Shown here piece by piece: positions 16,966-32,521 of a stretch of 40,992 bases of DNA (the first letter of the stretch is position 1; every line of letters begins with the position of its first letter). The notes below the pieces were generated by a model. It saw only the letters and a list, made by a program, of their open reading frames with translations. It ran no database searches and was not told the origin of the DNA. The translations under genes were made by a program, and so were the position numbers. The stretch lies in the NCBI GenBank assembly GCA_005777155.1, contig SXNM01000288.1, forward strand, positions 1 to 40,992, written 5' to 3'. This stretch comes from Pseudomonadota bacterium. Lineage in GTDB: Bacteria > Myxococcota_A > UBA9042.

Positions 16966-18762
16966 TCACGGACACAACGCCCCCAGCGCCGGGTCCGAAG
17001 GCAACCGAGCCAACAACCGCCCGGTCGGGTCCAACGCAGCCGCGCCCTCGACGCCCAACTCAACCAAGGTCGACTGACCACCGACGAGCAAAGTGCCGCC
17101 CGGTACAGACACACCGACCAACCCAAAGCGCGGCCCGCCGAGCGCATCCACGACCTGCAGCGTCAGCGGCTGTGCCCCCACGCCAGCCCCGGTATCAGCG
17201 CCCAGCGCCACCCGCCACAGATCCGCCCCGATGCACTCGGCCGCCGACCCAGCGCAAGGCGCCCCGCCGGTCAACTTGATTGCGCCAGCAGCGACAAGTG
17301 CCCCACCTGGCACGGCGACGCCAAGCCCGGCGAATCCGCCAAGCAGCGCTTTGCCGCCGATGTCCACACCGACCAAGGTCACCTTTGCGGCCGCGACGTC
17401 CACCCGCGCAAGGTAGGTCTGGCTCTGCTCCGCCGTGATGGACGACGCCCCGAGCCCTCCCATCACCAGCACCGCCTCAGCCCCATTGCGGACCCCCAGA
17501 GACACAGCGATCGGGCCAATCGTCATCAGGCCCTTCGACTGCATCAGCGCCGCGTCGCCGGCAACCGCCAGGGCTACGGGGCCCTTGGCGACTTCGGTCA
17601 GCAACTCGAAGCCCTGGCCAGACCCGCCGTCGAGGTTGCCTCCCACGATCAGCACGCCGCCGCCCTCCAGCACGACGAGCCCCGGCCGCGCCCGCGCCGC
17701 GCCGAGGCTAAGCGTCGTCGCCTTGCCAGCCCCGCCACCGATGATCCCGGCAAAATCGCCGACATGAGTCGCCACCTTGGTCGCCGCGCCGCTGCCGTCG
17801 ACACCGCCGACAAAGAGCGCGCCGCCGAGCGCCGCCACAGCCGACGACAGCAGCTGCAGACCGGCGCCGGCGGCGACCGGGACCTTGCGGCTGTTCCCCA
17901 CCTTGAGGTCGATCAGCTCCGCTGCCGCCAGGGGTGCCGCGTCGTCCGGCTTGCCGGGCATCAGCAGGGGCGACGGCAGGTTGGTCGCGCCGATCTGCTG
18001 CACCTGAGTCACGCCGCCGACGACCAGCACCTGCTGCGGCCCGATGGCGATGGCGTGGTGCCACACGCGCGACGACTGCAATTGCGGCCCCTTGTAAAAC
18101 GCGCCGACCCTATGGTCGAAGACGTCGACGTCTCGGCTCGCCACACCTTTGCGGTCTTTGCCGCTCCAGCTGCCGATGCCACCGACCACCACCGCGTCGC
18201 CGCCCGCTAACGCCGCGATCGCGCTCAGGCTACGCCCGGTCTGCAGGTGGTCGGTCTCGCCGGCGGTTACGCTCTTGGCGTCGCTGCCGGTGCAGCCGAG
18301 CGCGGCGGTAGGCGCCAGGAACACCTGCGTCGTCGACTCCTTCTGCGCCTCCACCGACAGCCCGTTGCTCCGGCCTGCCCAGCCGACCGACTTGTCAGCG
18401 CCGCAGCCCCAGACCTCGACGTCGATCGGCACGCCGGCCTTGACGTTCGGGACCAGCCACTGGCCGGCGCTCATCAGCTTCGTGCGGGCAATCCGCTCGA
18501 TTCGCGGCGCCGCGTCCCCGGCGCGGATGGCCACCGCCACGGTCGCGACCGTCTCCGGCACGCTGTTGCGCCCCGCCGTGCTCGTCAGGCAGCCGCTCGG
18601 CGTCAACGCGGCGAACTGCAACTGCAGCCCGCCACCTTCGGCCTCCGGCGCGACGTCAGCGCAGCCAGCCACCACGCCCAGCAGCGACAGCGCAGCCGCG
18701 CGGAGGCTGTGTGACGACCGAGATCCTCGGAACCACGGGTCCAGACTCATAGCCGATGCCAT
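16966..18762 (-). CDS. Lipoprotein with Kelch-like beta-propeller repeats
   Basis: Start at ATG 18762 (cat 18760-18762; alternative 18750) gives MASAMSLDPWFRGSRSSHSLRAAALSLLGVVAGC (lipobox). Recurrent blade motifs: ..AVVVGGIGSW.., ..VLVVGGVTQV.., ..ALFVGGVDGSG.., ..VLIVGGNLDGG.., ..VLVMGGLGAS.., ..TLLVGGQSTL... Confidence 0.7.
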   Translation of the reverse strand: MASAMSLDPWFRGSRSSHSLRAAALSLLGVVAGCADVAPEAEGGGLQLQFAALTPSGCLTSTAGRNSVPETVATVAVAIRAGDAAPRIERIARTKLMSAGQWLVPNVKAGVPIDVEVWGCGADKSVGWAGRSNGLSVEAQKESTTQVFLAPTAALGCTGSDAKSVTAGETDHLQTGRSLSAIAALAGGDAVVVGGIGSWSGKDRKGVASRDVDVFDHRVGAFYKGPQLQSSRVWHHAIAIGPQQVLVVGGVTQVQQIGATNLPSPLLMPGKPDDAAPLAAAELIDLKVGNSRKVPVAAGAGLQLLSSAVAALGGALFVGGVDGSGAATKVATHVGDFAGIIGGGAGKATTLSLGAARARPGLVVLEGGGVLIVGGNLDGGSGQGFELLTEVAKGPVALAVAGDAALMQSKGLMTIGPIAVSLGVRNGAEAVLVMGGLGASSITAEQSQTYLARVDVAAAKVTLVGVDIGGKALLGGFAGLGVAVPGGALVAAGAIKLTGGAPCAGSAAECIGADLWRVALGADTGAGVGAQPLTLQVVDALGGPRFGLVGVSVPGGTLLVGGQSTLVELGVEGAAALDPTGRLLARLPSDPALGALCP

Positions 18763-19052
18763 CCTCGCTCCTCGGTCGCATGTCGCCGTTCGCCCGCAGC
18801 CTGCCCGCCGCCGTCCACCGGCGCAGGTCCACGCTAGACATTCCGCTTGGGCAGCGTGGCCGCCAACGCCTCGGACTGTACGGTGCCCACGCCACACCTT
18901 CAACCTCTCGGGTCGTGACAACCGGCGGGAATCCAGCGGCGAGCAGCGCGGTTGTGCAGCCTCAAGGGCTGGCGTCCACCGCCTTTCCCTGTATCCTCGC
19001 GGCGGCGGGCGCATCAGTCGGTCGTGACCTCCGCCACGCCCATGGGATCGCG

Positions 19053-20906
19053 ATGTTCATCGTCTACTTCCTGCTGCTCCTCATCCCGCTGGTGCTCTTC
19101 CACGAGCTCGGCCATTACCTCGTCGCGCGCTGGATGGGCGTCCGCGTCCTCTCGTTTTCGATCGGCTTTGGCCCAGTAGTGTTCGCTTGGGAGCGCGCTG
19201 GAACCGAGTATGCCGTCCGCGCGCTGCCGCTCGGCGGCTTTGTCCGCATGCTCGGCGACGATCCGATGGGCGGTGAAGACGAGGGGCCACCAGCCCCAGA
19301 CTCATTTTTAGCCAAACCAGTGTGGCAGCGGTCGCTCATCGTCGCCGCTGGCCCGATCGCCAACCTCCTGTTGCCGATGGTCATCCTGTCCGGCGGCTCG
19401 CTGCTCGTCGATGGTCAAGTCGCCTCCACGCGGCTCGGCACGGTGATGCCCGGCGGCCCAGCCGACGTCGCAGGACTCCGCAGCGGCGACCGTGTCCTCG
19501 AGGTGGAGGGCGAGGAGGTCCACAGCTTTATCGCCTTCCGCAACGCGATTACGGCGCGGCCAGGGATGCCCACCCGCGTCGTTGTCGAACGCGACGGCAA
19601 GCGAGAGGTCTTCCAGGTCCAGCCCGAGGCGCGTCGCGAGGTCAAGATGGCCGAGCTCGGCGTGGTCGACACAGTCGGCCGCGTCCAAGTGGCACCGGAC
19701 GCTGAAGCGTCGATCGTCGTCGTCGACCCCACCGGCCCGGCCCTCGCGGCTGGTGTGCACAGCGGCGAGCGCGTGGTCGCCGTCGACGGCGTCGGCATCG
19801 CGACCTTCTGGCAGCTCCGTGCGGCGCTAGAGGCCGCGGCGCGCAGTCGGCCTGGCGGCACCGTCCGCCTGACGCTCGCCCCGCTGCGCCACGACAAGCC
19901 GCTGACCAAGGAAGAGATCAGCAGCCACGACGGCGTCTTGCACGACGCCAAGGGCCGCCACGAGGTCACGCTGCCGGCGTCAACGGTCGATGCCTTGGGC
20001 CTCCACGCGGCGCAGAACGTCATCGGCTATGTCGAGAAGGACAGCCCGGCTGCGCGCGCCGGGCTGCGGGCGGGCGACAGAATCCTATCGGCAGACGGCC
20101 AGCCGACGCCCAGCTTTGTCGTCCTACTCGACCGCCTCAAGCAGGGATACGAGGACGTCCGCGTCGCTCCTGAGAGCCGCGGTCTCAGCCCTGAGGAACT
20201 GCTGGCCCGCCTGCGCGCCGCGCTAGAGAAGCCCATCCCGCTGCGCATCCGCCGCGAGCTGCGGCCAGCCGATCGCGACGCGCTGAGCGGCCCAAAGGCA
20301 CCCGCCGACCCCCTCCTCGCCAGCGTCTACGCTCAGGCGGACCGCCGGGCCGAAGCGCTCCGTGCTGGTCTCCTTGAGGTCGACGCGCCGCTCAAGCTGC
20401 AAGCGACGCTCGACGCCAACGAGCGGCCGCGGCTGAACTTTGGCGCCGGCGCCTTGCAGGGCAGCGAGCCGCCCGAAGAAGTTGAGAACGTTGATCGTCT
20501 CGGCCACGCCTGGCTCCACACCCGCGAGTCGATGGCCGACGCCCTGCGCATGACGGTGCTCGCCGTCGCCGGCCTCTTCCGCGGCCACCTGCCCATCAAA
20601 GAGGTCGGCGGCCCCATCTTTATGGCGCAGCTCGCCGCGCGCACCGCCGACCTCGGCTGGGGCTTCTTCTTCCACATCATGGTGTGGCTCTCGGTCAACC
20701 TCGCGATCATTAATCTGTTGCCGATCCCCATCGCTGATGGCGGCCACCTGCTCTTTCTGGCCATCGAGGCGGTCCGCCGCGAGCCCGTCAGCGTCCGAAC
20801 GCGCATGATCGCCGCCTACGCCGGCATGACCTTCCTCGGGCTGCTTTTCGTCGTCGTCATGATGAACGATGTCCAGCGCCTCATCGCCTCGTTCGTCCAG
20901 GGCTAA
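19053..20906 (+). CDS. rseP: RIP zinc metalloprotease RseP (site-2 protease, M50 family) with PDZ domains
   Basis: ATG 19053 gives MFIVYFLLLLIPLVLFHELGHYLVARWMGVRV (HExxH). ..ALPLGGFVRMLGDD... PDZ-like segments (..GGPADVAGLRSGDRVLEVEG.., ..DSPAARAGLRAGDRILSADG..). C-terminal ..NLAIINLLPIPIADGGHLLF.. (NxxPxxxxDG motif). Confidence 0.9.
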   Translation: MFIVYFLLLLIPLVLFHELGHYLVARWMGVRVLSFSIGFGPVVFAWERAGTEYAVRALPLGGFVRMLGDDPMGGEDEGPPAPDSFLAKPVWQRSLIVAAGPIANLLLPMVILSGGSLLVDGQVASTRLGTVMPGGPADVAGLRSGDRVLEVEGEEVHSFIAFRNAITARPGMPTRVVVERDGKREVFQVQPEARREVKMAELGVVDTVGRVQVAPDAEASIVVVDPTGPALAAGVHSGERVVAVDGVGIATFWQLRAALEAAARSRPGGTVRLTLAPLRHDKPLTKEEISSHDGVLHDAKGRHEVTLPASTVDALGLHAAQNVIGYVEKDSPAARAGLRAGDRILSADGQPTPSFVVLLDRLKQGYEDVRVAPESRGLSPEELLARLRAALEKPIPLRIRRELRPADRDALSGPKAPADPLLASVYAQADRRAEALRAGLLEVDAPLKLQATLDANERPRLNFGAGALQGSEPPEEVENVDRLGHAWLHTRESMADALRMTVLAVAGLFRGHLPIKEVGGPIFMAQLAARTADLGWGFFFHIMVWLSVNLAIINLLPIPIADGGHLLFLAIEAVRREPVSVRTRMIAAYAGMTFLGLLFVVVMMNDVQRLIASFVQG

Positions 20907-21867
20907 GTCATCCCAGCTGCACGGCGCGCGGCGACCAGGCGGCCCGGGCGCCCGGAGGACATCGCCGCTGCACCCAACCTCGCCATCCCTGCCATCCCTG
21001 ACAGCCCTGCCAGCTGCGCGCAGCGCCGCCGCCGGGGCCATATTCCCCATTGAAGTCCGGGCGCTGTCGCCGCTGGCCGTAGACACGGGCACGGGCCCCG
21101 ATTTCTCCTTCACCGCGCTGCCCCCGCGGCAGGTCGCGGCGGCCGGATCGGCGCGCACGATCATCGCGATCTCAACCTCGTCCGACGTCGAGCAGGTCGC
21201 CTGGCAGGGCGCCGATGGCAGCCGTAAGGTCTGGCGCCAGCGCTGGCGCCGCGGCCAGCCCCGCCGCTTGCTGCCCGCCGCCCTCGCGATGGCTGGCGCT
21301 GAGGCCCTCGGGCAGGTTCAACTGGTCGTCTGCGACGTCGGACCCGGCAGCTTCACCGGCCTGCGTCTCGGCCTCGCCACCGCCCGCGCCATCGCATGGT
21401 TGGCTGGTGCCGCCACGCGCTCTGTGAAGTCCAGCGCGCTCCTCGGCGCCGCCGCACGCGCGGCCGGAATCCTGGGGCCGCTGCGGGTCTTGCTGCCGAG
21501 CCGCGCCGGCTACGTCTACGACGCCTGGCTGGCACCTGCCGGCCAGGATGAGCCGCCCGGGGTCGAGACGGTCGAGCGCGCGTTGACGGCGGTGCAGGCC
21601 GCGTGGTCCGGCCCGTTCTCGCCCATGGAGACGACGCTGATCCTCAGCCCAGAGATCGAGCACCTCGCCGCGCCGCTGAGCGCGGGCTTCCAGGTCGTGG
21701 TCCTCGTCACGGCTCCAGATGCGGCGTGTCTGCTCGACTCTGACTTGGCGGCTCGACCGGCGGCGAATTGGGCCGCGGTCGTTCCGCACTATGTCGGCAT
21801 CAGCGAAGCGGAGCGCGCCGGCGGCACGACGGCCGACCATCCTGGCCTACCCGTTCAGCGTGGCTGA
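20869..21867 (+). CDS. tsaB: tRNA threonylcarbamoyladenosine biosynthesis protein TsaB (YeaZ-like); true start uncertain
   Basis: Conserved part begins ..TIIAISTSS.. (~21160) and includes the hallmark ..VCDVGPGSFTGLRLGLATARAIAW... The only canonical in-frame start is ATG 20869, which overlaps rseP by 38 nt and adds ~95 Ser/Pro/Ala-rich residues. Third-position GC only becomes gene-like from ~21055. See findings. Confidence 0.7.
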   Translation: MSSASSPRSSRAKSSQLHGARRPGGPGARRTSPLHPTSPSLPSLTALPAARSAAAGAIFPIEVRALSPLAVDTGTGPDFSFTALPPRQVAAAGSARTIIAISTSSDVEQVAWQGADGSRKVWRQRWRRGQPRRLLPAALAMAGAEALGQVQLVVCDVGPGSFTGLRLGLATARAIAWLAGAATRSVKSSALLGAAARAAGILGPLRVLLPSRAGYVYDAWLAPAGQDEPPGVETVERALTAVQAAWSGPFSPMETTLILSPEIEHLAAPLSAGFQVVVLVTAPDAACLLDSDLAARPAANWAAVVPHYVGISEAERAGGTTADHPGLPVQRG

Positions 21868-22047
21868 CGCGACCCGAGTGGCCGAAAGCCGTCGCCCCAT
21901 CGACCGACCCGGCAGCCCACCCTTGGCGCCGCTCGCCGACGGCTATCGTCCCCATTGACTGCGGCCCTCGCCGAGGACTCTGATCTTCTCGGACGCCGCC
22001 AGCAACCAAGCAAGCACGGACTGCCAGCGGCCACTCAGGAGCCAACG

Positions 22048-22395
22048 ATGAACGACGCCACCGCCTGCGACCCGCTCGCCGCAGACCCGCCCCCAAGCGA
22101 CCGGTTGGCGCTCCACCCAGCGGTCGCTTGGCGTCCAGTCGCCGGCGAGATCTTCCTCGTGACGCCGGATCGCGCCATGCACCGCGTCGCCTCGCCCACC
22201 GGCGCCGCCATCGTGAAGGCGCTGGCTGGCCCGGGCGTCGAACGCGGCGACCTAATCGTGCAGCTGACGCAGCGCTTCACCGGGCATCCCTCAGCCATCG
22301 CCGCCGACGTCGACGCGTTCTTGGCCTCGCTCACCGCCGCGGGCATCCTGCGAACCGTCCCGGCTGCTCCTCACGCGCCCCTGAGCGCGCCTTGA
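22048..22395 (+). CDS. PqqD-family protein (stand-alone RiPP recognition element type peptide chaperone)
   Basis: 115 aa from ATG 22048, preceded by AGGAG (22037-22041, 6-nt spacer). The PqqD-like pattern is ..LALHPAVAWRPVAGEIFLVTPDRAMHRVASPTGAAIVKALAGPGVERGDLIVQLTQRFTGHPSAIAADVDAFLASLTAAGILR... That corresponds to a beta-strand region, then the helices 'iw..l.g', then 'Dv..Fl..L...gl'. Confidence 0.75.
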   Translation: MNDATACDPLAADPPPSDRLALHPAVAWRPVAGEIFLVTPDRAMHRVASPTGAAIVKALAGPGVERGDLIVQLTQRFTGHPSAIAADVDAFLASLTAAGILRTVPAAPHAPLSAP

Positions 22396-22576: not shown

Positions 22577-25500
22577 ATGATGCGCTCGACAATCAAGTCC
22601 GGCCTTACGACTTGGCTTCCCGCCTCAGAGAGCCATGATTCGGCGCAGAACCAAGCCAAACGTATCAGCCTCCGCGCGCTGCCCTTGCTCGGGCTCCTAC
22701 TGGCGCTGAGCGTCGCGCTCTCCGGCTGCGGCGATGACGATCCGGTCAATCCCGGCGGGGCTGACTCCGCCATCGACGGCGGGGGCGACGCGGGTGCCGA
22801 CGGCGGAATCGACGGCGGCGGGCTCCAGGTCGACAGCACCGGTCCGCAGGCAAAGCTCACCTTCAACATCGCGCACGCCAAGGGCAATGGCTTGGTCGAC
22901 CCGGTCAACGCCCAGATCCTCGACCTAGCGCTCGACAAGTACCCTGGCCTCACCGATCCGGGCTTTCAGGTCGATGTCCAGATCAACGGCATCAACGTGC
23001 CGGACGGCACCGAGATCGACGTCCAGCTCGACGGCAAGTCTGTCGGCAAGGTGACCATGACCGGCGGCACCGCAGAGCTCGCCAAGGTCACGCTGCAGTG
23101 CACCGCGTCGCAGAGCGCGATCTCGGTCCTCGCGACGGTCACGGGCAACCAGGTCAGCGCCACCAAGGCCGCCAAGCTCGACTGCGGCGATGGCTGCACC
23201 GCGGCCCTGGTTCCAGTCAATGGCTGCGTCACCGAAGACGCCGATCCTGCGACCCCCGGCCTCCAGGCGACCTTCCAGGTCACCTCAACCACACCTGACT
23301 GCACCCACGCCCAGTTGCGCGTCACCGACGTCAGCGGCAAGGTTCAGGAGACGCCCAAGGTCTCCCTCGTCGCCGGCAAGGCCACCGTCACCGCGACCGT
23401 CGCCGCCGACACCACGGGCGTCGTCAATGAGACGGCGACCGTCGTCGGCATCGTGATCGACGAGGCCCACGCTGAGCGTCCCAAAGGCGAGTCCGATGCG
23501 CTGGCTGTGCCAATCACCACGGACGCCCCGAGCGTCGCCATCGTGGCGCCCGACAAGGCGCAGCTGACCCTCGCCGATGACGCCGATGGCAAGGACGCCA
23601 ACGGAGTCCAGGTCACCATCGTCGGCACCGCGACCACCATGAAGCCGAGCGATATCGAGAAGCTCGTCGTCAAGGTCGATGGCGTTGAGGTCGGCAAGAC
23701 CTCGATGAAGCTCAACGGAGGCTTCGAGTTCGACCTCAGCTTCGCCACCTCCAAGACGTGGGAGGTCACAGTCGAGGCCACGAACGCATGCGGCCTGTCC
23801 GCCACCGGCAAGCGCAGCTACAAGGTTGCGGCCTCCAAGGCCAAGCTTAAGATCAGCTCGCCGTCCAGCGGCGCCGTGCTCAACGCCAAGAACGACACGG
23901 ACCTGTCGACCGCGACCGTCCTCGAGACCAACTTCGAGGTCGCAATTCAGGGCGCGAACGATGGCGACAAGGTCTCGGTGTTCTGCCGCCCGAACCAGGC
24001 CGGCAGCCCGTATCCCATCACGCCCAACGGCACAGCGACCGTCACTGGCGGCGCCGCGACGCTCTCCCTACCGCTGTCGATTGATGCCACCGCGGTCGGC
24101 ACCAGCGTCGTCTGTGTGGCCCGCGACAACGGCGCCAACCCAGCCGAGAGCCCCGAGGTCGCCCTGACCGTCGGCCTGCCGCCGCCCTGCATGACGATCA
24201 AGCTGCCGAAAGAGGGCTTCGTCACCGCGAGCGCCACCTTGCCCGTCGGCGCGACAGCCACCGGCCTGGAGGGCGCGGTCGTCGAGGCCAAGCTGGCGCT
24301 GGTCGACGGAGCGACGTTGATCGACACGCCGATCGGCAAAATCACCGGCGGCGCCTTCACCGGCGCCCTGGCGCTGACCATTGGCAGCCCACCGCTGCCG
24401 ATCCCGCACGGCACCTATGTCCTCTCGCTCAACGCCGCGGACACGTTCGGCAACGCCGTCAACACCGGCAACTGCTCGACGCTGAGCCGCACCATCGTCG
24501 TCGACCGCAAACCGCCCCTGCTCGCGCTCGCCATTCCGACCAAGCAGGTGCTGGATCCCGCCGGCGACGCCGACTCTGACGTGGTGTCACCTGGCTACCA
24601 GACCAAGGTCGTGTTCAGCGTCGGCGGTGAGAGCGACTTGACGACCTCGACCGTCTGCGCCAGCGTCAACGGCTTCGCGCTGCCTTGCCAGACCATCACG
24701 GGCAACGGCCAGTTGACCTTCTCCTCCGTCACCCTGCAGCCCGGCGCCAACATCATCGTCGCCACGGCCAAGGACGCGCTCGGCAATGTCAGCAAGGACG
24801 TCATCGTCAACATCACGCTGCAGTCCAACGCCGCGATGGTGAAGTGGATCAAGCCTGCGACCAGCACCTTCGTCGCCACCGACTCGCTGCAGCTCGAGAT
24901 CAGCGTCACCGACCAAGCGCTCGGCGTCCCGGTCAACGGCGCCGCGATTACCCTGATCCTCAATGGCAAAGAGACCCCCGGGGTTGTGTTCTCGGCCAGC
25001 GGCAACGGTCTCTACAGCGCCAAGGCGACTGGGCTGGCCTTGGGTCCGAACACCCTGCAGGTCACGGCCTTGCCGGTCGGCGCCGCCACCGAGGGCGTCA
25101 GCCCGCAGCTGACTGTGACCCGCAAGGGCGCTTCGCCGACCATCGCGCTGCAAGGCCTGACGAACGGGGAGATCGTCAACCTCGCCAAGGCCTCATGCAT
25201 CGCTGGCCTCACCGACTGCATCACCAACCTCAACGCAGTGACCACCAACGCCGCTGACGGCAGCACCGCCACGCTCGTCGTGACCTGCGACCTGGCGGCG
25301 GCGGTGACGGCCACCGCCACGGTGACCGGCGGCGTGGCTGGCTTCTCCTTGATCACGTTGCCGCACGGCGCCAAGTGCACGCTGCAGGTCAGCGTCATCG
25401 ATGAGGCCGCGCAGCAGGCCCTCGGCGCCCCGATCGCCGTGTCGATCGACCGCGTCGCGCCGGTGTTCTCGGTGTTCTCGCCGCTGACGACCGCGCTGCT

Positions 25501-28500
25501 CGCGCTCTCCGATGCCAACGGCAACCCCGCCGACGGCGTCCAGGTCGCCACCAACGTCTCCCTCAGCGGCCTCGAGAAGGACCGCCCCATCGTGCTGCAA
25601 GTGTTCAACGACGGTGGCACCAAGGCCTTCGAGGCCACCTCCGCCATGCCGAGCACCGCCACCGCCGGCCAGGCCGTGTCGGTCAACTTCGGCGTCGTGA
25701 CGTACCCGGCTGGCAAGACCATCAAGCTCACCATCACGACCAGCGACCTGGCCGGTAACCCCGCGACCTTCACCGCCACCTTCGTTGTCGTCCCAGACGC
25801 CGCGGAGGTCCGCTTGATCGGCCCGACGTTCGTCGACCCGAAGTCGTGCTCCGTCCACTCCGACTGCGGCACGTCGATCTGCCAGACCGGTAAGTGCACG
25901 ATCCCATGGAACAAGAACACGTTTCGCCAGTTCACGGTCATCGGTCTCGGACTCCTGACCGGCGCCAAGGCGCGCATCTGCTCGGACAACGGCAACGTAA
26001 CCGGGCCGAGCTGCGCCACCGCTGGCACCAAGGAGATCGTGGCACCGACGGACTTCGACGGTGTCCAGGTCGCGCTGCTGGCACAGACGCTCAACGAGGG
26101 CCTGCACACGCTCCACGCCGAGGTCCTGCCGGCGGGCGCGAATGCCGCAACGGCGTCGAACTGGCTGACCTCAATCGCCGCATCGGCGACCGGCAGCAAG
26201 ACGCGCCGCATCTTGTACGACGCGACGCCGCCCGTGGTGGCCGCGGTGACCGCCCCGGCAGCCGCCGGCGTCCCCGCCAAGTGCCTCGCGCGGGCCTCGC
26301 AGCTCTCCTCTGACGGCTTCGCCCCCGGCGGCGTGTTCGTCTTCGCCGCCACCATCGCCAACGACGACGGTCAGGTGGCCATCCTCACTGGCGGGACCAA
26401 GGTCGGCACCGCCAGCTCGGTGTCCAAGGTGGCGTCGGTGCAGATCCAGCTCGCTACCGAAGGCTCGACCACGCTGACCGCCGTCGCCACCGACAGCGTC
26501 GGCAACGAGAGCGCGCCCTTCAATGTCGGCACCTTTGACGTCAATACCATCCCGCCGATCGGCGCCTTTGCCGCCCCCGGAAAGTCCACGCTCATCGTTG
26601 GCGACTCGCTTGATGTCCGCGTCACCTCGCAGTCGACCGACGTCGAGGCCCAGCCTGTGACGCTCAAGGACGGCGACAAGACGATCGGCTCGGTGGCGAT
26701 GACCAAGGGCGAGGCGCTCTTCTCCGACAGCCTCTACAAGACGCTGACCGACGGCACCCACACGTTGACGGCGATCGTCACGGACAGCTGCGCCAACCCG
26801 GCGACCATCGCGACCTCTCCAGCGTTGGTGACGGTGGACACCTCGGCGCCGACGGCCTCGATCTCTGGGCCGACCCAGGGCCAGACCTTCGGCGACGCCA
26901 ACGACGCCAAGGCCGACGTCAGCGGCTACCAGATCGCCGCCACGTTCACCACCGGCGGCGGCACGTCGTGGACGCTTGACCTCGGCACCGACTGCGACGC
27001 GGCCTTCGCCAACTGCGCTGGCTTCGCTGGCGCCGGCAGCGGCAACGTCAGCAACGATGGCGGCGCCGAGCCGACGCAGTTCGTGACCATTCCGTTCGGC
27101 AAGTCCAAGCAGTACGTCCTGCGCCTGACCGTGACCGACGCCAATGGCAACAAGACGGTTGTGGACCGCGGCTTCATCGTCGAGCTCTCTGGCTGCTTGG
27201 TCGGTCTGACGGGCCTGCCGGCCTCTGGCATCGTCAACACCAGCGCCTGCGCCACCGCCGGCCAGAACTGCGCCAGCGCCAAGCTCACGCTGACTGCCTC
27301 ATTTGTCGGCCCCTGCGGCACGGTCAGCGCGGTCGAGCTGCGGGTCGATGGCGCGCTCTCCGCCTCCAAGGCGCCGACGGGCAGCGCCGCCGGCTTCGAT
27401 CTCACCGTCACCGGCGGCACGAGTCCCAAGGTGGAGGCCAAGGTCCTTGAGGGCGCGACCTCCAAGGGCACCAGCGGCGAGACCACCATCAAGGTCGACC
27501 TGACCCTGCCGGTCGTCAGCTTCATCGCCGGCACCGTGCTGGGCGTCGCCACGCCGGCCAACACCGCGCCCGCCCTGGCCGGCAAGGCCAAGGACGCCGA
27601 CGGCGCCAAGAACGGCCACCAGGCCCACCTGTTGCTGCAGGTGGTCGACGCCGGCCTGACGGGTGGCAAGCTCACGAGCGTGAAGGAGACGGTCGGCAAC
27701 AGTGACCTCTCCAGCTCGCTCGGCCTGCCGCTGACCTACGCTGCGAACGGCACGGTGACGACCGAGCTGAAGTTCGTGACGGCGAAAGAGGACGCCAACA
27801 ACACCATCGAGGCCACCGTGGCGGACGCCGCCGGCAACGTCGGCAAGGCCACGCTGACCCTGGAGGTGGACTGGACCTCGCCGGGCGCCGTCACCCTGAG
27901 CGACCTCAAGGCAGCCGACCTCAATGCCCGCCGGCCCTTCGCCAAGCTCAGCTTCAAGGCACCGGCGGAGGATGGCAATTCAGGAGGCGCTGCGGCCAGC
28001 TACGAGGTCGTCTACTCGCGCTCGGCGATCGCGAGCACCACCGAGTTCGAGGCCGCCTGCAAGGCGACAAGCCTGCCGAAGTCCGCCGTCCCGACGCCGG
28101 GCGCGCCGGGTGCCGACCAGGTGGTCGTGGTCGAGGGTCCCGACGGTCGCGCCGCTGCCGAGGCGTGCAAATTCGCGCCTCTGACCGACAACGGCGTCGG
28201 CAAGTACCACTTCGCCGTCCGCGCCGTCGATGCTGCTGGCAACGCAGGGGCGATCAGCAACGTCGTCTCGACCTCCGACCTCCGCCTGCGCTACGCCAAG
28301 ATCACCTCGGCGACGGCGCCCTGGAACACCGCCACCTCCTTCACCAACGTCGTCGGCGTCGGCGACCTCAACGGCGACGGGCTTGGCGACTTCGGCTTTG
28401 GCGGCAACACCAACACCAACAAGTTCTGCGTCGTCTACGGTCACGCGGACAGCAGCTTGCAGGTGCCCGAGGTGAACATCGCCGCCGCCTCCGCCGCGAC

Positions 28501-29734
28501 TCACACCTGCTTCGACAACTTGACGGCGTTCGGCCTGTCCACGGCGGCGCCTGTCGACATCAACGGCGATGGCATTCACGACCTCGTGGCCGCGAACGGC
28601 CATGGCACGGCGTCCGCGCCGCGCTCGGTGCTCATCTTTCTCGGCGAGAAGGGCAAGCCGATCACCACGACGGCGGCGGTCACGATCTCCAACATCTCCC
28701 ACTCGTTGACCTATGGCGTCCGCGCGTTGACCTCGGCGGGCAACTTCAACGGCGACAAGACCTCGGGTGGCAAGCCGATCGGCGACATCGCCTTCACGAC
28801 CCGCCCAGCAGGCGCCGTGACCATCGACCGCGTCATGGTGGTTCCGGGCAACGCCGCGTGGTCGACCAGCGCACCCGTCACCATCGACATCAACGACGCA
28901 GCCGCGTTGGCGACCCACAACGTGCTCATCATCACGCAGCCGGCTGCGGCGGCGTCTGTCAGCTTTGGCTCCTTCCTGGCCGGTCCAGGCAACGTCCTGA
29001 CCGACGCCGGCGACGCCCAGTTCGATGACCTGGTGATTCGCCGTCCCTCGCCGACGGAGGGTCTGTTCGTGGTCAAGGGGCGAACCTGGACCGGCACGCA
29101 GACCCTGACGACCACGCCGACGCTCGATGGCTCGGGCTCTGCCGACGCGACGTCGATTCGCATCTTCGGGCCGCAGTACGGCACCAACCTCAGCGGCTTC
29201 GGCTTCGCCACCGACGTGTCGTTCGACGGCGACGCGATCCCGGACCTCGTCGCCACCGAGGCGGAGACGGGCAAGCCGACGGCGATTGTCTGGATGCGGG
29301 GCTCGCTGCTCAGCAAGGCGATTGGCACATCGGTCAACGTCAAGGGCACGCTGGTGGCGGGCTCGTCGGCGCCCCAGGTGTTCTCGCACGCCTTCGGCCA
29401 CGCGGTCGTCGACTATGGGCGCCTGACGTCCAGCGTCGGCGACTTCGGCGACCAGGGCGGCGGCGCCAAGGCGTTTGTCCACGGCTTGCCGTCGTGGACG
29501 CCGGGCGGACAGCTCACCGTCAGCGTCCGGCAGCCCGTGACGCGCGTCGACGGGTTGGTGAAGGACATCGCGTCATTCCACCACGCTGACTTGGTGATCG
29601 GAAATCCCTTCACCCCTGGCTTGGCGACCATGGGCAACGCGACGCTCAATGGCGTTGGCGACTTCAACGGCGATGGATTCCAAGACTTCGTGGTGGGCAC
29701 GAGCACCACCGGCTACCTGATCCTCGTCTACTGA
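22577..29734 (+). CDS. Giant (2385 aa) surface lipoprotein: tandem Ig-like/Big-type domains, fibronectin-III-like segment, C-terminal FG-GAP/VCBS (integrin-alpha-like) repeats
   Basis: Lipobox ..LALSVALSGC (Cys codon 22727-22729). Long Thr/Val/Ala/Gly-rich beta-type repeats, each ~90-100 aa (..TAKDALGNVS.., ..TSDLAGNPAT.., ..ATDSVGNESAP.., ..VTDANGNKT.., ..VADAAGNVGKA.., ..AVDAAGNAGA..). A small Cys-knot, CSVHSDCGTSICQTGKC, lies at about 25834-25910. C-terminal FG-GAP motifs GDLNGDGLGDFGFGG, VDINGDGIHDLVAANG, FDGDAIPDLVATE, GDFNGDGFQDFVVGTS. Confidence 0.85.
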   Translation: MMRSTIKSGLTTWLPASESHDSAQNQAKRISLRALPLLGLLLALSVALSGCGDDDPVNPGGADSAIDGGGDAGADGGIDGGGLQVDSTGPQAKLTFNIAHAKGNGLVDPVNAQILDLALDKYPGLTDPGFQVDVQINGINVPDGTEIDVQLDGKSVGKVTMTGGTAELAKVTLQCTASQSAISVLATVTGNQVSATKAAKLDCGDGCTAALVPVNGCVTEDADPATPGLQATFQVTSTTPDCTHAQLRVTDVSGKVQETPKVSLVAGKATVTATVAADTTGVVNETATVVGIVIDEAHAERPKGESDALAVPITTDAPSVAIVAPDKAQLTLADDADGKDANGVQVTIVGTATTMKPSDIEKLVVKVDGVEVGKTSMKLNGGFEFDLSFATSKTWEVTVEATNACGLSATGKRSYKVAASKAKLKISSPSSGAVLNAKNDTDLSTATVLETNFEVAIQGANDGDKVSVFCRPNQAGSPYPITPNGTATVTGGAATLSLPLSIDATAVGTSVVCVARDNGANPAESPEVALTVGLPPPCMTIKLPKEGFVTASATLPVGATATGLEGAVVEAKLALVDGATLIDTPIGKITGGAFTGALALTIGSPPLPIPHGTYVLSLNAADTFGNAVNTGNCSTLSRTIVVDRKPPLLALAIPTKQVLDPAGDADSDVVSPGYQTKVVFSVGGESDLTTSTVCASVNGFALPCQTITGNGQLTFSSVTLQPGANIIVATAKDALGNVSKDVIVNITLQSNAAMVKWIKPATSTFVATDSLQLEISVTDQALGVPVNGAAITLILNGKETPGVVFSASGNGLYSAKATGLALGPNTLQVTALPVGAATEGVSPQLTVTRKGASPTIALQGLTNGEIVNLAKASCIAGLTDCITNLNAVTTNAADGSTATLVVTCDLAAAVTATATVTGGVAGFSLITLPHGAKCTLQVSVIDEAAQQALGAPIAVSIDRVAPVFSVFSPLTTALLALSDANGNPADGVQVATNVSLSGLEKDRPIVLQVFNDGGTKAFEATSAMPSTATAGQAVSVNFGVVTYPAGKTIKLTITTSDLAGNPATFTATFVVVPDAAEVRLIGPTFVDPKSCSVHSDCGTSICQTGKCTIPWNKNTFRQFTVIGLGLLTGAKARICSDNGNVTGPSCATAGTKEIVAPTDFDGVQVALLAQTLNEGLHTLHAEVLPAGANAATASNWLTSIAASATGSKTRRILYDATPPVVAAVTAPAAAGVPAKCLARASQLSSDGFAPGGVFVFAATIANDDGQVAILTGGTKVGTASSVSKVASVQIQLATEGSTTLTAVATDSVGNESAPFNVGTFDVNTIPPIGAFAAPGKSTLIVGDSLDVRVTSQSTDVEAQPVTLKDGDKTIGSVAMTKGEALFSDSLYKTLTDGTHTLTAIVTDSCANPATIATSPALVTVDTSAPTASISGPTQGQTFGDANDAKADVSGYQIAATFTTGGGTSWTLDLGTDCDAAFANCAGFAGAGSGNVSNDGGAEPTQFVTIPFGKSKQYVLRLTVTDANGNKTVVDRGFIVELSGCLVGLTGLPASGIVNTSACATAGQNCASAKLTLTASFVGPCGTVSAVELRVDGALSASKAPTGSAAGFDLTVTGGTSPKVEAKVLEGATSKGTSGETTIKVDLTLPVVSFIAGTVLGVATPANTAPALAGKAKDADGAKNGHQAHLLLQVVDAGLTGGKLTSVKETVGNSDLSSSLGLPLTYAANGTVTTELKFVTAKEDANNTIEATVADAAGNVGKATLTLEVDWTSPGAVTLSDLKAADLNARRPFAKLSFKAPAEDGNSGGAAASYEVVYSRSAIASTTEFEAACKATSLPKSAVPTPGAPGADQVVVVEGPDGRAAAEACKFAPLTDNGVGKYHFAVRAVDAAGNAGAISNVVSTSDLRLRYAKITSATAPWNTATSFTNVVGVGDLNGDGLGDFGFGGNTNTNKFCVVYGHADSSLQVPEVNIAAASAATHTCFDNLTAFGLSTAAPVDINGDGIHDLVAANGHGTASAPRSVLIFLGEKGKPITTTAAVTISNISHSLTYGVRALTSAGNFNGDKTSGGKPIGDIAFTTRPAGAVTIDRVMVVPGNAAWSTSAPVTIDINDAAALATHNVLIITQPAAAASVSFGSFLAGPGNVLTDAGDAQFDDLVIRRPSPTEGLFVVKGRTWTGTQTLTTTPTLDGSGSADATSIRIFGPQYGTNLSGFGFATDVSFDGDAIPDLVATEAETGKPTAIVWMRGSLLSKAIGTSVNVKGTLVAGSSAPQVFSHAFGHAVVDYGRLTSSVGDFGDQGGGAKAFVHGLPSWTPGGQLTVSVRQPVTRVDGLVKDIASFHHADLVIGNPFTPGLATMGNATLNGVGDFNGDGFQDFVVGTSTTGYLILVY

Positions 29735-29756
29735 TCGACCTCTGCAGGAGAGCTCC

Positions 29757-29942
29757 ATGGCAAGCGAAAACCGTGACCGTGACGCAACAGTAGGAAACCT
29801 CAGCGGGGATCCTGCGGCGACGCCGTGGGTGGCACCGACCTTGGAGTCCAGCCCGCCGCGCGACTGGGCCGAGCTGCAGAGCTGCACCTTTGGGCCGGGC
29901 TGTGATCCAGAGAACGACCCACCGGGCGATGCCTGCGTGTAG
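29757..29942 (+). CDS. Small ORF (61 aa), candidate RiPP precursor peptide with a Cys/Asp/Pro-rich C-terminus
   Basis: MASENRDRDATVGNLSGDPAATPWVAPTLESSPPRDWAELQSCTFGPGCDPENDPPGDACV. AGGAGAG at 29746-29752 lies 6 nt (from GGAG) before ATG 29757. The ORF starts 22 nt after the giant gene's stop and ends 43 nt before the HPr-kinase-like gene. Third-position GC (~72% by my count) is lower than in neighbouring genes, so coding status is not certain. Confidence 0.5.
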   Translation: MASENRDRDATVGNLSGDPAATPWVAPTLESSPPRDWAELQSCTFGPGCDPENDPPGDACV

Positions 29943-29985: not shown

Positions 29986-30918
29986 ATGGTCAGTCCGATG
30001 GCAGAGGTAGGCCGACAGAGGAGTTGGGCCTTCGGCGACACTGGAGAAGGCCGGACCCTGATCCGTGGACTCTGGCACACTCCGACGAGCGCCTTCGAGA
30101 AGCGAATCGCGACCATGCGGGTGCTCGACGCGGTCGTGGCGTTCGACGCCCATGATGAACGCTTCGAACGCGCCCGTTGGCACGACGCCCCCGGTGACAC
30201 GCCCCCCTGCGTCGCCGAAGTGCGCATCACGGCCGGCCCTCGACCGGACTGGGCAGCTGGCGGCGAGGCTTGCGAGCGGCTCGATGGCGGCGGCTACCTC
30301 TTCCGGGCCCAAGGCGGGCGCTTGGAGTTGGCAGCGAGCGGTGAGTCGGCGCTGGCCGAGGTCTGGGATCCCGGCACCAAGTGGGACATCATCTTCCATC
30401 TCTGGCGCTTAGGCTGGCGCTGGCTCCTGCACGAATGCCAGCGGCGTGGCGCGCTGGAGCTGCACGCGGCGTCTTTCCTCGACGGCGACGGTGCGTGGAT
30501 CGTCGCCGGCGACTCCGGCGCTGGCAAGACCACCCTGTGTGGCCGGCTCGACCCTGAGGTCCTCCTCAACGAGGAGTTCGCGCTCGCTGCCCCGACTCGC
30601 GCCGGCGGCTACGAGGCCTGGTGGTTTCCTCACGCCCGTGCGCCGACCGAGCCCCGACCGCCGAGATCGCCGCTGCGAGGGATCGCCTATCTGACGCCGC
30701 GCCGCGATCGGACGGCGGCGCAGCGCCTGTCGCCTCCGGCGGCGCTGGCGTGGCTCTCGGCTCATGCGCTGGGCCCGCTCGATGCGTCGCCTGAGCGCTG
30801 GCTGGAGTCGGTGGCGACGATGGCACTGAACGTGCCGGTCATGGCGCTGGACCACCACCTCGGCAGCCCGGTCGCCGCCGTGGCTGCGGCCCTGCGCGCG
30901 GCGACGGAGGTCGAGTGA
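29986..30918 (+). CDS. HPr-kinase-like P-loop protein (HprK C-terminal-domain fold; probable peptide/protein kinase)
   Basis: ..LELHAASFLDGDGAWIVAGDSGAGKTTLCGRL.. matches the HprK C-domain P-loop pattern (h-h-h-GDSGxGKS/T); P-loop at 30508-30531. Start taken at ATG 29986 (alternative 29998), because track start 29890 would overlap the small ORF. Stop TGA 30916-30918 overlaps the next gene's GTG. Confidence 0.6.
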   Translation: MVSPMAEVGRQRSWAFGDTGEGRTLIRGLWHTPTSAFEKRIATMRVLDAVVAFDAHDERFERARWHDAPGDTPPCVAEVRITAGPRPDWAAGGEACERLDGGGYLFRAQGGRLELAASGESALAEVWDPGTKWDIIFHLWRLGWRWLLHECQRRGALELHAASFLDGDGAWIVAGDSGAGKTTLCGRLDPEVLLNEEFALAAPTRAGGYEAWWFPHARAPTEPRPPRSPLRGIAYLTPRRDRTAAQRLSPPAALAWLSAHALGPLDASPERWLESVATMALNVPVMALDHHLGSPVAAVAAALRAATEVE

Positions 30919-32096
30919 TCGAGATCGTCAACCCCATCGCCCAGGCCTGGCAGCGCTTGCTGACCGAGCAGGGCATTCCCATTCGGGCCCACCTCGATAT
31001 CACCTACCGCTGCGACCTCGACTGCGAGCACTGCTACCTCGACGACAAGGACGATCGCCGCGAGTTGGCGACCGAGGAGTGGCTGCGGGTCGTGGATGAG
31101 CTCGCCGACTGGGGCGTCCAGCGCCTCGGCTGGAGCGGCGGCGAGGTCTTCGCGCGCGCGGACTTCTTCACGCTGCTGGAGCACAGCGTCCGTCGCGGCT
31201 TCATCAACATCATCAAGACGCACGCTGGCAACATCGACCGCGACCTGGCGCTGCGCCTGCGTGCGCTCGACGTGCAGCGCATCGACATCAGCCTCTACTC
31301 GCTGTCGGCGCCAGTCCACGACGGCATCACGCGCATTCCTGGCTCCTTGAGCGCGACCTTGCGGGGAATCGCCGCGCTGCGCGCCGTGGGGCACATCGTC
31401 TCTGTGCAGGTGATGCCGTTTCGCGCCAATATGCTCGAGATTGAAGACATGATCGCCTTTCTGGAGGGCCTCGGCTGCGTGGCGTCGATCGCTCCTGGGC
31501 TCAAGGCCGACAACGGCGGTGGCTTGGCGGTGCTCGACCTCGACCTCAGCTACGAGGAGCGGATCGAGCTAGAGCGGATCCGGCTGCGCGTGGCGCTTCG
31601 GCAGGGCCACAAGGGCTGGCGGCCTGGGGTGGTGGCGGCCGAGGATCAGCCCTGCGAGATCGGCACCGGCAGGATCTACTTCGGCCCAGACGGCGCCATC
31701 TTCCCTTGCGTGACCTACCCGTCAGCCATCGGTCACGTGCGGTCGGGGCCGATCCGGGCGCAGTGGGACGCCTCGCCGCTGCGGCGCCAGTTGGCGGCCT
31801 GGACCAACGCCAAGCGCACCAGCTGCCTCTCTTGCGGCGCCTCGGCCGGCTGCGGCTACTGCGCCGGCGCTGCCTTCAAGGCGACAGGCGACCACGACGT
31901 CGCGCCGCCCTACTTCCACGAGCGCTCGCGCGCCAAGGCTGTCGCCTACGAGCTGGAGCGCGGCGTGGCGCTCGGCGACGCCTTCTGGGCTTCGGTGCCG
32001 ACCGGCGAGGCGCCCGTCGTGAAGCGGCGCGGCCAGTTTCCGATCTTTCGCGCGCAGAAGACCGGCAAGGCCGCGCTCGCCGCAGGTGAGCGCTGA
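30915..32096 (+). CDS. Radical SAM enzyme with C-terminal SPASM/Twitch-type auxiliary cluster domain
   Basis: CDLDCEHC (CX3CX2C, 31011-31034). SAM-binding GWSGGEVF. C-terminal Cys pattern C247-X12-G-X4-C265 (CEIGTGRIYFGPDGAIFPC), then C304-X2-C-X5-C-X2-C316 (CLSCGASAGCGYC), spanning 31653-31862. GTG start 30915 sits in a GTGA overlap with the upstream gene. Confidence 0.85.
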   Translation: MIEIVNPIAQAWQRLLTEQGIPIRAHLDITYRCDLDCEHCYLDDKDDRRELATEEWLRVVDELADWGVQRLGWSGGEVFARADFFTLLEHSVRRGFINIIKTHAGNIDRDLALRLRALDVQRIDISLYSLSAPVHDGITRIPGSLSATLRGIAALRAVGHIVSVQVMPFRANMLEIEDMIAFLEGLGCVASIAPGLKADNGGGLAVLDLDLSYEERIELERIRLRVALRQGHKGWRPGVVAAEDQPCEIGTGRIYFGPDGAIFPCVTYPSAIGHVRSGPIRAQWDASPLRRQLAAWTNAKRTSCLSCGASAGCGYCAGAAFKATGDHDVAPPYFHERSRAKAVAYELERGVALGDAFWASVPTGEAPVVKRRGQFPIFRAQKTGKAALAAGER

Positions 32097-32107: not shown

Positions 32108-32521
32108 ATGGCGCGGCATGACCGCCGCCGTTGGCGTCTGCAGGGCGGCTCCATGCGTCCGCTCGGCCCGGGGTGGGAGGCAGAGGTCGACGCCAGCGAC
32201 ACCGGCAAGACCGCGCTCGCCGCCGGGGACCTCGTCTGCTATCTCGGGCTCGATGGGCGCGCGGTCGTGCACCGGCTCCACGCCCTGGAGGGCGGTTGGC
32301 TGCTGGTGCAGGGCGACACCGCAGGGCCCGAGCCGCCCCTGCCGCAGAGCGCCATCCTCGGGCGCGTGAGCGCTCTCTGGTGGCGGGGGCTGCGGCTGCC
32401 CTTGCCGACGCGCGGCCCCGCGGCGCCTCTCGTGCGTCGCAGCGGCCTGCTCTGGTCGGCGATTGCGCCAGTGATTCAGCGGGTATGGGGCCACGATGTA
32501 TGGAAGCGATCGAATGTTTGA
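32108..32521 (+). CDS. S24/S26-family serine peptidase (signal-peptidase-I/LexA-like fold) lacking an N-terminal membrane anchor
   Basis: ..LQGGSMRPLGPG.. (GxSMxP nucleophile motif, Ser15 codon 32150-32152). ..AAGDLVCYLG.., ..AVVHRLHAL.. (HR motif as in SipW/Sec11-type S26B), ..LLVQGDTAG.., ..AILGRV... An in-frame TGA at 32087-32089 shows the N-terminus cannot be longer. Starts 11 nt after the rSAM stop. Confidence 0.65.
   Translation: MARHDRRRWRLQGGSMRPLGPGWEAEVDASDTGKTALAAGDLVCYLGLDGRAVVHRLHALEGGWLLVQGDTAGPEPPLPQSAILGRVSALWWRGLRLPLPTRGPAAPLVRRSGLLWSAIAPVIQRVWGHDVWKRSNV

Follow-up and report, generated by a model that had tools for sequence, protein, structure and literature searches.

A putative RiPP precursor family encoded with PqqD-type, ScmC-like, radical SAM/SPASM and signal-peptidase-like proteins in uncultured Myxococcota

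Two described systems resemble the one considered here, a 61-codon open reading frame (ORF) and the genes around it in a 40,992-nt stretch of DNA (hereafter the window; positions 1 to 40,992 of contig SXNM01000288.1, assembly GCA_005777155.1, from a bacterium placed by GTDB in Myxococcota_A, UBA9042). One is the SynChlorMet (SCM) cassette (ScmC, ScmD, ScmE and ScmF; TIGR04248-TIGR04251), in which a ScmC-family P-loop protein and a PqqD protein accompany two PqqE-like radical SAM/SPASM enzymes. This cassette was reportedly first described by Haft and Basu in 2011, and we know of no precursor peptide that has been identified for it in print. The other is the linear polyphosphorylated peptides (LPPs), a family of ribosomally made, post-translationally modified peptides (RiPPs) from Bacillota (Popov et al., Nat Commun 2026, PMC13381572). 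The LPP precursor carries YxxPxVLxHQxIxFET/xxS and is cleaved from its leader after FET, an HprK-like kinase polyphosphorylates Ser3 of the core, and leader removal by a SipW-like Ser/His/Asp peptidase requires presentation of the peptide by a RiPP recognition element (RRE); the discrete RREs of lasso and LPP systems bind [Y/W]xxPx[L/V/I/F/A], SipW-like peptidases had, according to the authors, not been seen in RiPP pathways before, and radical SAM enzymes go unmentioned in the main text (PMC13381572).

The 61-residue product of the window ORF is very probably a substrate of the neighbouring peptide-modifying enzymes, and comparative sequence analysis suggests with good confidence that the ORF encodes a genuine RiPP precursor processed by the module around it. 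Comparison of loci gives this precursor four constant partners: a PqqD-type protein, a ScmC-like protein, one radical SAM/SPASM enzyme and a SEC11/SipW-type protease. The system is a RiPP pathway that combines known parts in a new way and has a precursor family lacking annotation, and it resembles both SynChlorMet and LPP without being a member of either; no published description of the Myxococcota module was found in the literature. With LPP it shares a [Y/W]xxPx[V/L] leader motif, a discrete PqqD-like RRE, a variable core behind a conserved leader, an HprK-related kinase-like protein (a match at the superfamily level only), an archaeal/endoplasmic reticulum-type (SipW/SEC11-like, Ser/His) signal peptidase I homologue whose role as leader peptidase is presumed here, and a small hydroxyl residue 18 positions after the aromatic residue (the phospho-Ser3 of LppA, Ser42 in the window). 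It differs from LPP in having a radical SAM/SPASM enzyme and a Cys-rich core, in the absence of an MsbA-like exporter and an NTP-transferase from its conserved neighbours, in its host (Myxococcota versus Bacillota), in an RRE gene that lies a 7-kb lipoprotein gene away from the precursor, and in the spacing of the FE motif (F +11/E +12 in the window versus +13/+14 in LPP). With SynChlorMet it has in common a ScmC-family P-loop protein, PqqD and a PqqE-like radical SAM/SPASM enzyme, but it encodes one radical SAM enzyme instead of two (ScmE and ScmF), and its ScmC-like protein reaches only 25.5 bits against the TIGR04249 cutoff of 125 and its radical SAM enzyme 74 against the ScmE cutoff of 400.

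Three further groups were compared. Sactipeptide and ranthipeptide systems (SkfA/SkfB, subtilosin/AlbA, SCIFF/CteB, PapA/PapB) likewise combine a radical SAM/SPASM maturase with a short Cys core behind a leader, and the acidic residues beside Cys recall the Cys-Asp/Glu substrates of the ranthipeptides; their maturases, however, usually possess their own N-terminal RRE, which in the window is a separate PqqD, they come without an HprK-like protein or a signal-peptidase-like leader peptidase, and no curated NCBIfam maturase model is reached by the window enzyme. The pyrroloquinoline quinone (PQQ) pathway (PqqA, PqqD, PqqE) resembles the window in its W-x-x-P leader and in a discrete PqqD that serves an RRE-less radical SAM/SPASM enzyme, PqqE being the second-best structure match, whereas the window core is variable and has no invariant Glu/Tyr pair, and PqqB, PqqC and PqqF genes are absent. 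Lasso peptides have a YxxPxL-type leader motif too, with genes for a macrolactam cyclase (C) and a B2 cysteine protease beside the precursor, but neither a cyclase nor a transglutaminase-like protease is present among the genes called or scanned nearby.

The precursor gene and its family

The gene and its parts, all on the forward strand, are:
29757..29942, +: gene for the precursor peptide (61 codons and a stop), which gene callers predict in three independent assemblies and which lies in a conserved syntenic slot
29746..29752, +: Shine-Dalgarno-like AGGAGAG, read from the sequence; GGAG-to-ATG spacer of 6 nt
29826..29849, +: leader recognition motif W24-V-A-P27-T-L29-E-S31, fitting the family pattern [YW]-x-x-P-x-[VLI]-x-[ST]
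29874..29882, +: L40-Q41-S42, predicted leader-peptidase site (-3 Leu, -1 small) from the register table below, with putative cleavage at S42/C43
29883..29939, +: predicted 19-aa core CTFGPGCDPENDPPGDACV, from alignment A3, the register table and composition

Translation from the ATG at 29757 to the TAG at 29940-29942 gives MASENRDRDATVGNLSGDPAATPWVAPTLESSPPRDWAELQSCTFGPGCDPENDPPGDACV. A preliminary description, made from the DNA letters alone, had reported a 61-aa ORF preceded by GGAG at a 6-nt spacer, a third-position GC (GC3) of about 72% and a leader of 42 residues free of Cys; the first is read directly from the sequence, GC3 computes to 0.726, and the Cys residues stand at positions 43, 49 and 60, residues 1-42 having none. 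Over the same stretch the GC3 of the other two frames is 0.68 and 0.63. There is no alternative in-frame start between the preceding stop (29718-29720) and the ATG, and 22 nt separate the latter from the stop codon of a giant lipoprotein gene. Because 108 ORFs of at least 40 aa overlap 14 kb of window DNA (70% GC), the ORF alone is not beyond chance, and the question was therefore settled by comparison.

A word-index search with the lone peptide returned only the query, and a full phmmer search against 1.84 billion representatives returned the query and a 208-aa protein (P0029) made up of the tandem repeat PQEWAQIHSCTQGRGCKESFAPTGDPN in four copies, which recalls window residues 33-58; because the repeats inflate its E-value, the match was judged probably due to chance. 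Orthologous loci were reached via the radical SAM protein, which has a compact family of relatives at 35-53% identity whose contigs show the same gene order and a called ORF of 47-76 aa in the precursor slot. A scan of one genome per species gave 80 loci, about 55 of which are distinct Myxococcota metagenome-assembled loci. A small ORF of 47-65 aa is found upstream of the ScmC-like/radical SAM pair in these ~55 loci, and no Myxococcota locus whose upstream flank is available leaves the syntenic slot empty; 46 distinct peptides were extracted, nearly all of them ATG-started and most preceded by an AGGAG/GGAG-like motif.

The search in related genomes by hidden Markov model (HMM) and synteny that the preliminary description recommended gave the same picture. 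An HMM built from five syntenic peptides had its best six-frame match in the slot, on the right strand, in nearly every Myxococcota locus outside the training set. The family HMM matches the slot with E = 1e-16 to 3e-5 in every locus with upstream flank, loci left out of its training included (L042, L046, L052-54, L057, L058 and L062, with E = 1.8e-9 to 3e-5 or better), the second-best matches anywhere having E >= 0.15. It finds a single precursor copy in the window, which therefore contains no hidden shorter precursor of this family.

The frame, start context and motif register are kept over ~55 loci at 16-33% peptide identity. The ratio of nonsynonymous to synonymous substitution rates (dN/dS) is 0.13-0.70 where computable (Nei-Gojobori, 18 related pairs; 3 saturated at synonymous sites); pooled, the ratio falls from 0.57 in the N-terminal part to 0.26 between the leader motif and the C-terminus. 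A search around the ORF turned up neither promoter-like nor terminator-like sites, the two sub-threshold Rfam matches near it do not overlap it, and 43 family peptides gave 0 matches to Pfam and NCBIfam models. On this comparative evidence the 61-codon frame is a real, evolutionarily conserved gene, and the peptides define an undescribed family in uncultured Myxococcota. The preliminary description would have given up its candidate precursor had the frame been broken in orthologues, had the Cys positions varied freely, or had the region been an untranslated 5' leader of the kinase-like gene; the frame is kept in about 55 orthologous loci, two of the three Cys columns recur as described below, and neither an Rfam match nor a promoter or terminator overlapping the ORF supports an RNA, so that the candidate stands.

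A gap-free register table of ~54 peptides, with positions counted from the aromatic residue, reads as follows:
+0: Y or W, 100%; window W24
+3: P, 100% (P27 is also invariant in alignment A3); window P27
+5: V/L/I, 94%; window L29
+7: S or T, 100%; window S31
+16: L, 83% (else V/A/S/I/F); window L40
+18: always small (S35, G6, C6, A4, T3); window S42
mostly +19/+20: first Cys; window C43

Alignment A3, which comprises 43 sequences, agrees with this register: L40 and C43 are at least 90% conserved and the second Cys column (window C49) about 70%, while Cys60 of the window is unconserved across the family. The expectation that the Cys positions would be conserved is thus borne out for Cys43 and in large part for Cys49 and fails for Cys60, some members having a single Cys. 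An alignment of five sequences had pointed to Cys49 as the conserved residue; this assignment was overturned in favour of Cys43 by the 43-sequence alignment and the register table. At least one Cys follows +15 in all but one of 55 scored peptides, the exception (L062) being one in which the motif was mis-registered by the script. Composition changes sharply at the same place, with Cys accounting for 13.3% of residues after +18 and 0.5% before it, and Lys plus Arg for 0.5% and 11.9%, respectively. The part after +18 is 10-22 aa long, enriched in Gly, Pro and Asp, anionic and hypervariable, and beside the near-invariant Cys it has no invariant column. Since the first conserved Cys and the compositional shift follow +18, the leader/core boundary at 42/43 that had been drawn from the window sequence coincides with that of the family.

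The motif L-x-S-C at the boundary was considered as a lipobox (Lgt/LspA; precedent PMC13056109) or part of a Sec signal, and this was ruled out for want of a hydrophobic h-region: the leader is charged and hydrophilic, and no 9-residue stretch of the window peptide exceeds a Kyte-Doolittle mean of 0.68. The precursor is not a secretion or lipoprotein signal, because it has no hydrophobic stretch. Resemblance of the core to the N-terminus of the giant lipoprotein was also looked for, and none was convincing.

The surrounding module

The partner genes of the precursor in the window, together with the giant gene embedded among them, are:
22048..22395, +: PqqD-type RRE, 115 aa (Pfam PF05402 PqqD at 34.5 bits, above the cutoff of 23.4, with E = 2.7e-8)
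22577..29734, +: giant lipoprotein, 2385 aa, with FG-GAP/Big_13 repeats and lipobox LSGC (ORF translation; faint precomputed Pfam matches)
29998..30918, +: ScmC-like HprK-related P-loop protein, 306 aa as called, with an alternative ATG at 29986 (precomputed Pfam PF27840 ScmC)
30915..32096, +: radical SAM/SPASM enzyme, 393 aa (Pfam Radical_SAM 3.4e-18, SPASM 1.8e-4)
32108..32521, +: signal-peptidase-I-like protease of the SEC11/SipW type (Ser/His), 137 aa (orthologue invariants, PDB profile)

The position of the precursor ORF directly before the modifying enzymes, noted from the window alone, is confirmed by the kinase-like (~29998..30918) and radical SAM/SPASM genes that follow it. The ScmC-like protein has the Walker A sequence GDSGAGKTT and is matched in NCBIfam by ScmC (7.6e-6) and HprK_rel_A (1.1e-3), both below cutoffs. 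The same is true of its orthologues (n = 32), with 27 matches to ScmC, 23 to HprK_rel_A and 19 to HprK_rel_B, all below cutoff; H156, G171, G176, K177 and T179 are invariant, and the profile matches phosphoenolpyruvate carboxykinase and P-loop proteins in the PDB. A word-index search with this protein returned the query only. Wherever flank is available its gene stands ahead of the radical SAM gene, whose start in the window overlaps the ScmC-like stop by 4 nt.

The radical SAM/SPASM gene is invariably present at the loci, and the invariant Cys residues of its product are C33, C37 and C40 (CX3CX2C) plus six in the C-terminal SPASM domain. Since the radical SAM domain begins at about residue 28, the enzyme itself lacks a recognition domain. 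Its profile matches SkfB (7e-33), PqqE (5e-28) and 5v1q (1e-18) in the PDB; by profile comparison the thioether synthase SkfB is, together with PqqE, its nearest solved relative. No NCBIfam model reaches its cutoff against this enzyme (ScmE 74/400, PqqE 80/381, StsB 82/625, AlbA 67/850 and SkfB 40/300 bits).

The preliminary description had also assumed a PqqD-like protein. Such a protein is encoded at 22048..22395, whereas the small gene after the radical SAM gene encodes a signal-peptidase-like protease and not PqqD. The window PqqD was located with an HMM from the PqqD genes of distant relatives (match 21868-22392); its gene has an ATG start with AGGAG 6 nt upstream. NCBIfam ScmD gave no match to it at 1e-6, though the Pfam PqqD model was reached, and no PqqD match occurs in the ScmC-like proteins or in the small gene downstream of the radical SAM gene. 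The PqqD gene of the distant relatives, which belong to Acidobacteriota, Nitrospirota and Syntrophorhabdaceae, lies directly upstream of the radical SAM gene. The PqqD-type protein is presumed to be the leader-binding partner of the precursor.

The small downstream gene was considered as PqqD and rejected, being S26-like by profile. Three assemblies call its start at 32153 (122 aa) and so lose the G-x-S-M-x-P box with the catalytic Ser, which the ATG at 32108 restores. In 24 orthologues G13, S15, M16, P18, G40, D41, H55, R56, G69, D70 and G85 are invariant, the profile matches SEC11C (6.6e-5), SEC11A and bacterial signal peptidase I in the PDB with the Ser, 'HR' and 'GD' boxes aligned, and Peptidase_S26 and S24 matches were obtained for 7/24 and 6/24 family members, respectively. 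The orthologue invariants, the PDB profile and the Peptidase_S26 matches together identify a putative Ser/His protease of the SEC11/SipW type, and the Ser box at residue 15 implies that it has no N-terminal membrane anchor. In every Myxococcota locus this gene comes after the radical SAM gene, and its product is presumed, from sequence, to be the leader peptidase.

Between the PqqD and precursor genes lies the giant lipoprotein gene, also found there at L091 (1846..8898), L092 (1709..8770) and L093 (1722..8855); its orthologues have 2,350-2,385 aa and lipoboxes LTGC, LSSC and LSGC. In most Myxococcota loci a match to the C-terminal 600 aa of the window protein, at 25-52% identity, lies upstream of the peptide. 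The embedding around the giant gene is kept across Myxococcota whose radical SAM proteins are only ~40% identical, a few lineages (L039, L059) being without it, and the order TsaB-like, PqqD, giant lipoprotein, peptide, ScmC-like, radical SAM, peptidase, CpoB-like, LysM recurs in L091, L092 and L093. The Myxococcota loci L039 and L059 lack the giant gene and show PqqD immediately ahead of the peptide, followed by ScmC, radical SAM and signal peptidase genes; the loci of other phyla (L067-L079) have no giant gene and the same set of genes in other orders. Because the peptide stays with the enzymes when the giant gene is absent and the order changes, it belongs to the module and not to the giant gene. 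Directly upstream of the window PqqD are genes for an RseP-type site-2 protease (18756..20906, +) and a TsaB-like protein (20869..21867, +). Both also precede PqqD in L091 and L092, as does the TsaB-like gene in L093, whose locus starts too late for RseP. Since these genes precede PqqD in relatives as well, the whole block is syntenic with housekeeping genes.

Proposed maturation and competing explanations

It is proposed that the PqqD-type protein binds the leader through W24-x-x-P27-x-L29 and presents the peptide to enzymes without a recognition domain, as in PqqD-PqqE and with LppB in LPP. The radical SAM/SPASM enzyme would then modify the short anionic, Gly/Pro/Asp-rich core, in which Cys is the only conserved functional group. 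The most likely reaction is formation of a Cys-S-to-carbon thioether of the sacti- or ranthipeptide type, to which we give a shade less than even weight, other Cys-centred or backbone radical chemistry being possible. The ScmC-like protein would use ATP, most likely to phosphorylate a Ser or Thr of the peptide, a reaction known from the HprK-like kinases of lasso and LPP pathways; this step we put forward tentatively. The protease may remove the leader after the small +18 residue, in the window at L40-Q41-S42/C43, freeing a 19-residue core that starts with Cys, and here the chances appear evenly balanced. Type I signal peptidases follow the -3/-1 rule, and cleavage at S42/C43 is predicted because Leu at +16 and a small residue at +18 fit it. 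We infer the thioether chemistry, the phosphorylation and the cleavage after Ser42 from sequence comparison. No dedicated exporter was found among the conserved neighbours of the module.

Several observations weigh against this scheme or parts of it. For the gene itself, the GC3 of 0.726 is below the 0.80-0.91 of the adjoining genes, and the PqqD gene lies 7.4 kb from the precursor. The radical SAM enzyme scores similarly against models for heme, PQQ, mycofactocin, sactipeptide and other maturases, always far below cutoffs. One-Cys cores make up 14/55 scored peptides and two family members have Cys only near the C-terminus; for these reasons no fixed cross-link topology can be proposed. Neither +18, which is Ser in only ~65% of the peptides, nor +7, where Ser and Thr both occur, is a clean universal phospho-acceptor, and the single-sequence AlphaFold model of the ScmC-like protein, with a mean predicted local distance difference test score (pLDDT) of 34.6, is unusable. 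The third catalytic residue of the protease is uncertain, the window having Glu where most orthologues carry Asp after the GD box.

On a somewhat unlikely reading the precursor is genuine but a modification other than a thioether defines its class. In one form of this reading the ScmC-like kinase would (poly)phosphorylate the peptide as in LPP, and the radical SAM enzyme might carry out epimerisation, C-C or C-O cross-linking, Cys oxidation, or the building of a metal site in an anionic Cys/Asp peptide. The YxxP leader, HprK-like kinase, SipW-like peptidase and discrete RRE do match the core set of the phosphorylation-based LPPs, the radical SAM enzyme stands no closer to one SPASM family than to many others, Lys and Arg are nearly missing from the strongly anionic, Cys-rich core, and single-Cys members exist. 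Against this reading, Cys is the one functional group that the cores have kept, they share neither an aromatic residue nor any other recurrent partner for C-C cross-links, and the thioether synthase SkfB is the best profile match among solved structures.

It is quite improbable that the product is a small protein partnering the giant lipoprotein, as a chaperone, regulator or envelope partner, and not a radical SAM substrate. In favour of this, 22 nt separate its start from the giant gene, the two are probably co-transcribed, most Myxococcota loci have the giant gene ahead of the peptide, and the surroundings are envelope-related (CpoB/YbgF-like and LysM); against it, in loci that lack the giant gene (L039, L059 and all those of other phyla) the peptide stays with PqqD, ScmC, radical SAM and signal peptidase genes, and the leader contains an RRE-type [YW]xxP motif. 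Very improbable, too, is a reading as precursor of a small housekeeping redox cofactor of the PQQ or mycofactocin kind, which would account for the PqqA-like W-x-x-P leader, the discrete PqqD, the PqqE-like radical SAM enzyme without its own RRE, and a single-copy, apparently vertically inherited locus amid RseP, TsaB and CpoB-like housekeeping genes: cofactor precursors keep invariant core residues, whereas here a core of 10-22 aa is hypervariable with only Cys recurring, and there are no conserved downstream tailoring or oxidising enzymes. That the ORF is a chance product of GC-rich DNA, an untranslated 5' leader or a small RNA before the kinase-like gene is hardly credible, for although spurious ORFs are very common in the window, its GC3 is lower than that of adjoining genes and single-sequence word-index and phmmer searches gave no homologue, the frame, start context and motif register are conserved across ~55 loci with dN/dS below 1 and no Rfam match, promoter or terminator was found.

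A precursor matured by the neighbouring enzymes makes of an anonymous 61-codon ORF the candidate substrate of a five-protein maturation module present in at least ~55 species-level Myxococcota genomes, all uncultured, with relatives in Acidobacteriota, Nitrospirota and other phyla. It predicts W24, P27 and L29 as recognition residues, cleavage at S42/C43 and a key part for Cys43. The deeply conserved embedding around the giant lipoprotein hints at a physiological, envelope-related role. On a more far-reaching and doubtful reading, the long retention of the module around the gene for a ~2,350-residue FG-GAP lipoprotein in Myxococcota suggests that the anionic Cys peptide, once matured, might serve the giant surface protein or the envelope as a dedicated partner, ligand or cofactor, as opposed to a diffusible antibiotic.

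Relatives in other lineages and minor observations

Two loci, L084 (6311..7819), a Syntrophorhabdaceae genome with a near-bona-fide SCM cassette, and L089 (6306..7832), a metagenome-assembled genome labelled Methanospirillum, have ScmC and the peptidase domain fused in one ORF. In L084 the ScmC part scores 148.7 bits against the curated cutoff of 125 and the fused domain 48.8 bits against archaeal-type signal peptidase I, and the two radical SAM genes score 365 bits against ScmE and 299 bits against ScmF. This fusion ties the window protease to the SCM cassette. In the window, unlike in L084, the protease has a gene to itself, and the genes are arranged differently. From the comparison with L084 and L089, the window module is therefore a distant single-radical-SAM relative of the SynChlorMet cassette. 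It links the SCM cassette and the LPP family, and adds a radical SAM enzyme to the set of RRE, HprK-like kinase and SipW-like leader peptidase. A broader proposal, which we regard as doubtful, is that the peptide family represents the missing substrate class of pan-phylum cassettes of PqqD, radical SAM/SPASM, ScmC kinase-like and signal-peptidase-like proteins, SynChlorMet included; if true, this would be a new RiPP class joining radical SAM chemistry on Cys, HprK-type phosphorylation and SipW-type leader removal.

Peptides of the form 'KKPY-x-x-P...L-x-x-C...C...C' are encoded near PqqD, radical SAM, ScmC-like and S26-like genes in Acidobacteriota, Nitrospirota and other phyla (L067, L068, L069, L071, L072, L073 at ~5214..5396, L075, L077, L078 and L079), usually just downstream of the radical SAM gene; an example is ...KKPYEKPVVTRFPLRPEEAVLGFCK...C...C. 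Their matches to the Myxococcota HMM are weak (E 6e-4 to 0.04), and from their sequences they look like members of a wider superfamily of such precursors. The Myxococcota contig L040 has two precursor-like genes, at 47..238 (+) and 4891..5088 (-), and two ScmC-like genes in differing arrangements, which suggests that the module is duplicated there.

The sequences of L015, L019, L020, L024 and L066 are titled 'uncultured Enterobacteriaceae' or 'Klebsiella pneumoniae', and these bins look mislabelled. Elsewhere in the window, a 1006-aa ORF at 11872..14892 (-) has radical SAM matches at about residues 19-195 and 350-520, suggesting a fused multi-domain radical SAM protein unrelated to the precursor.

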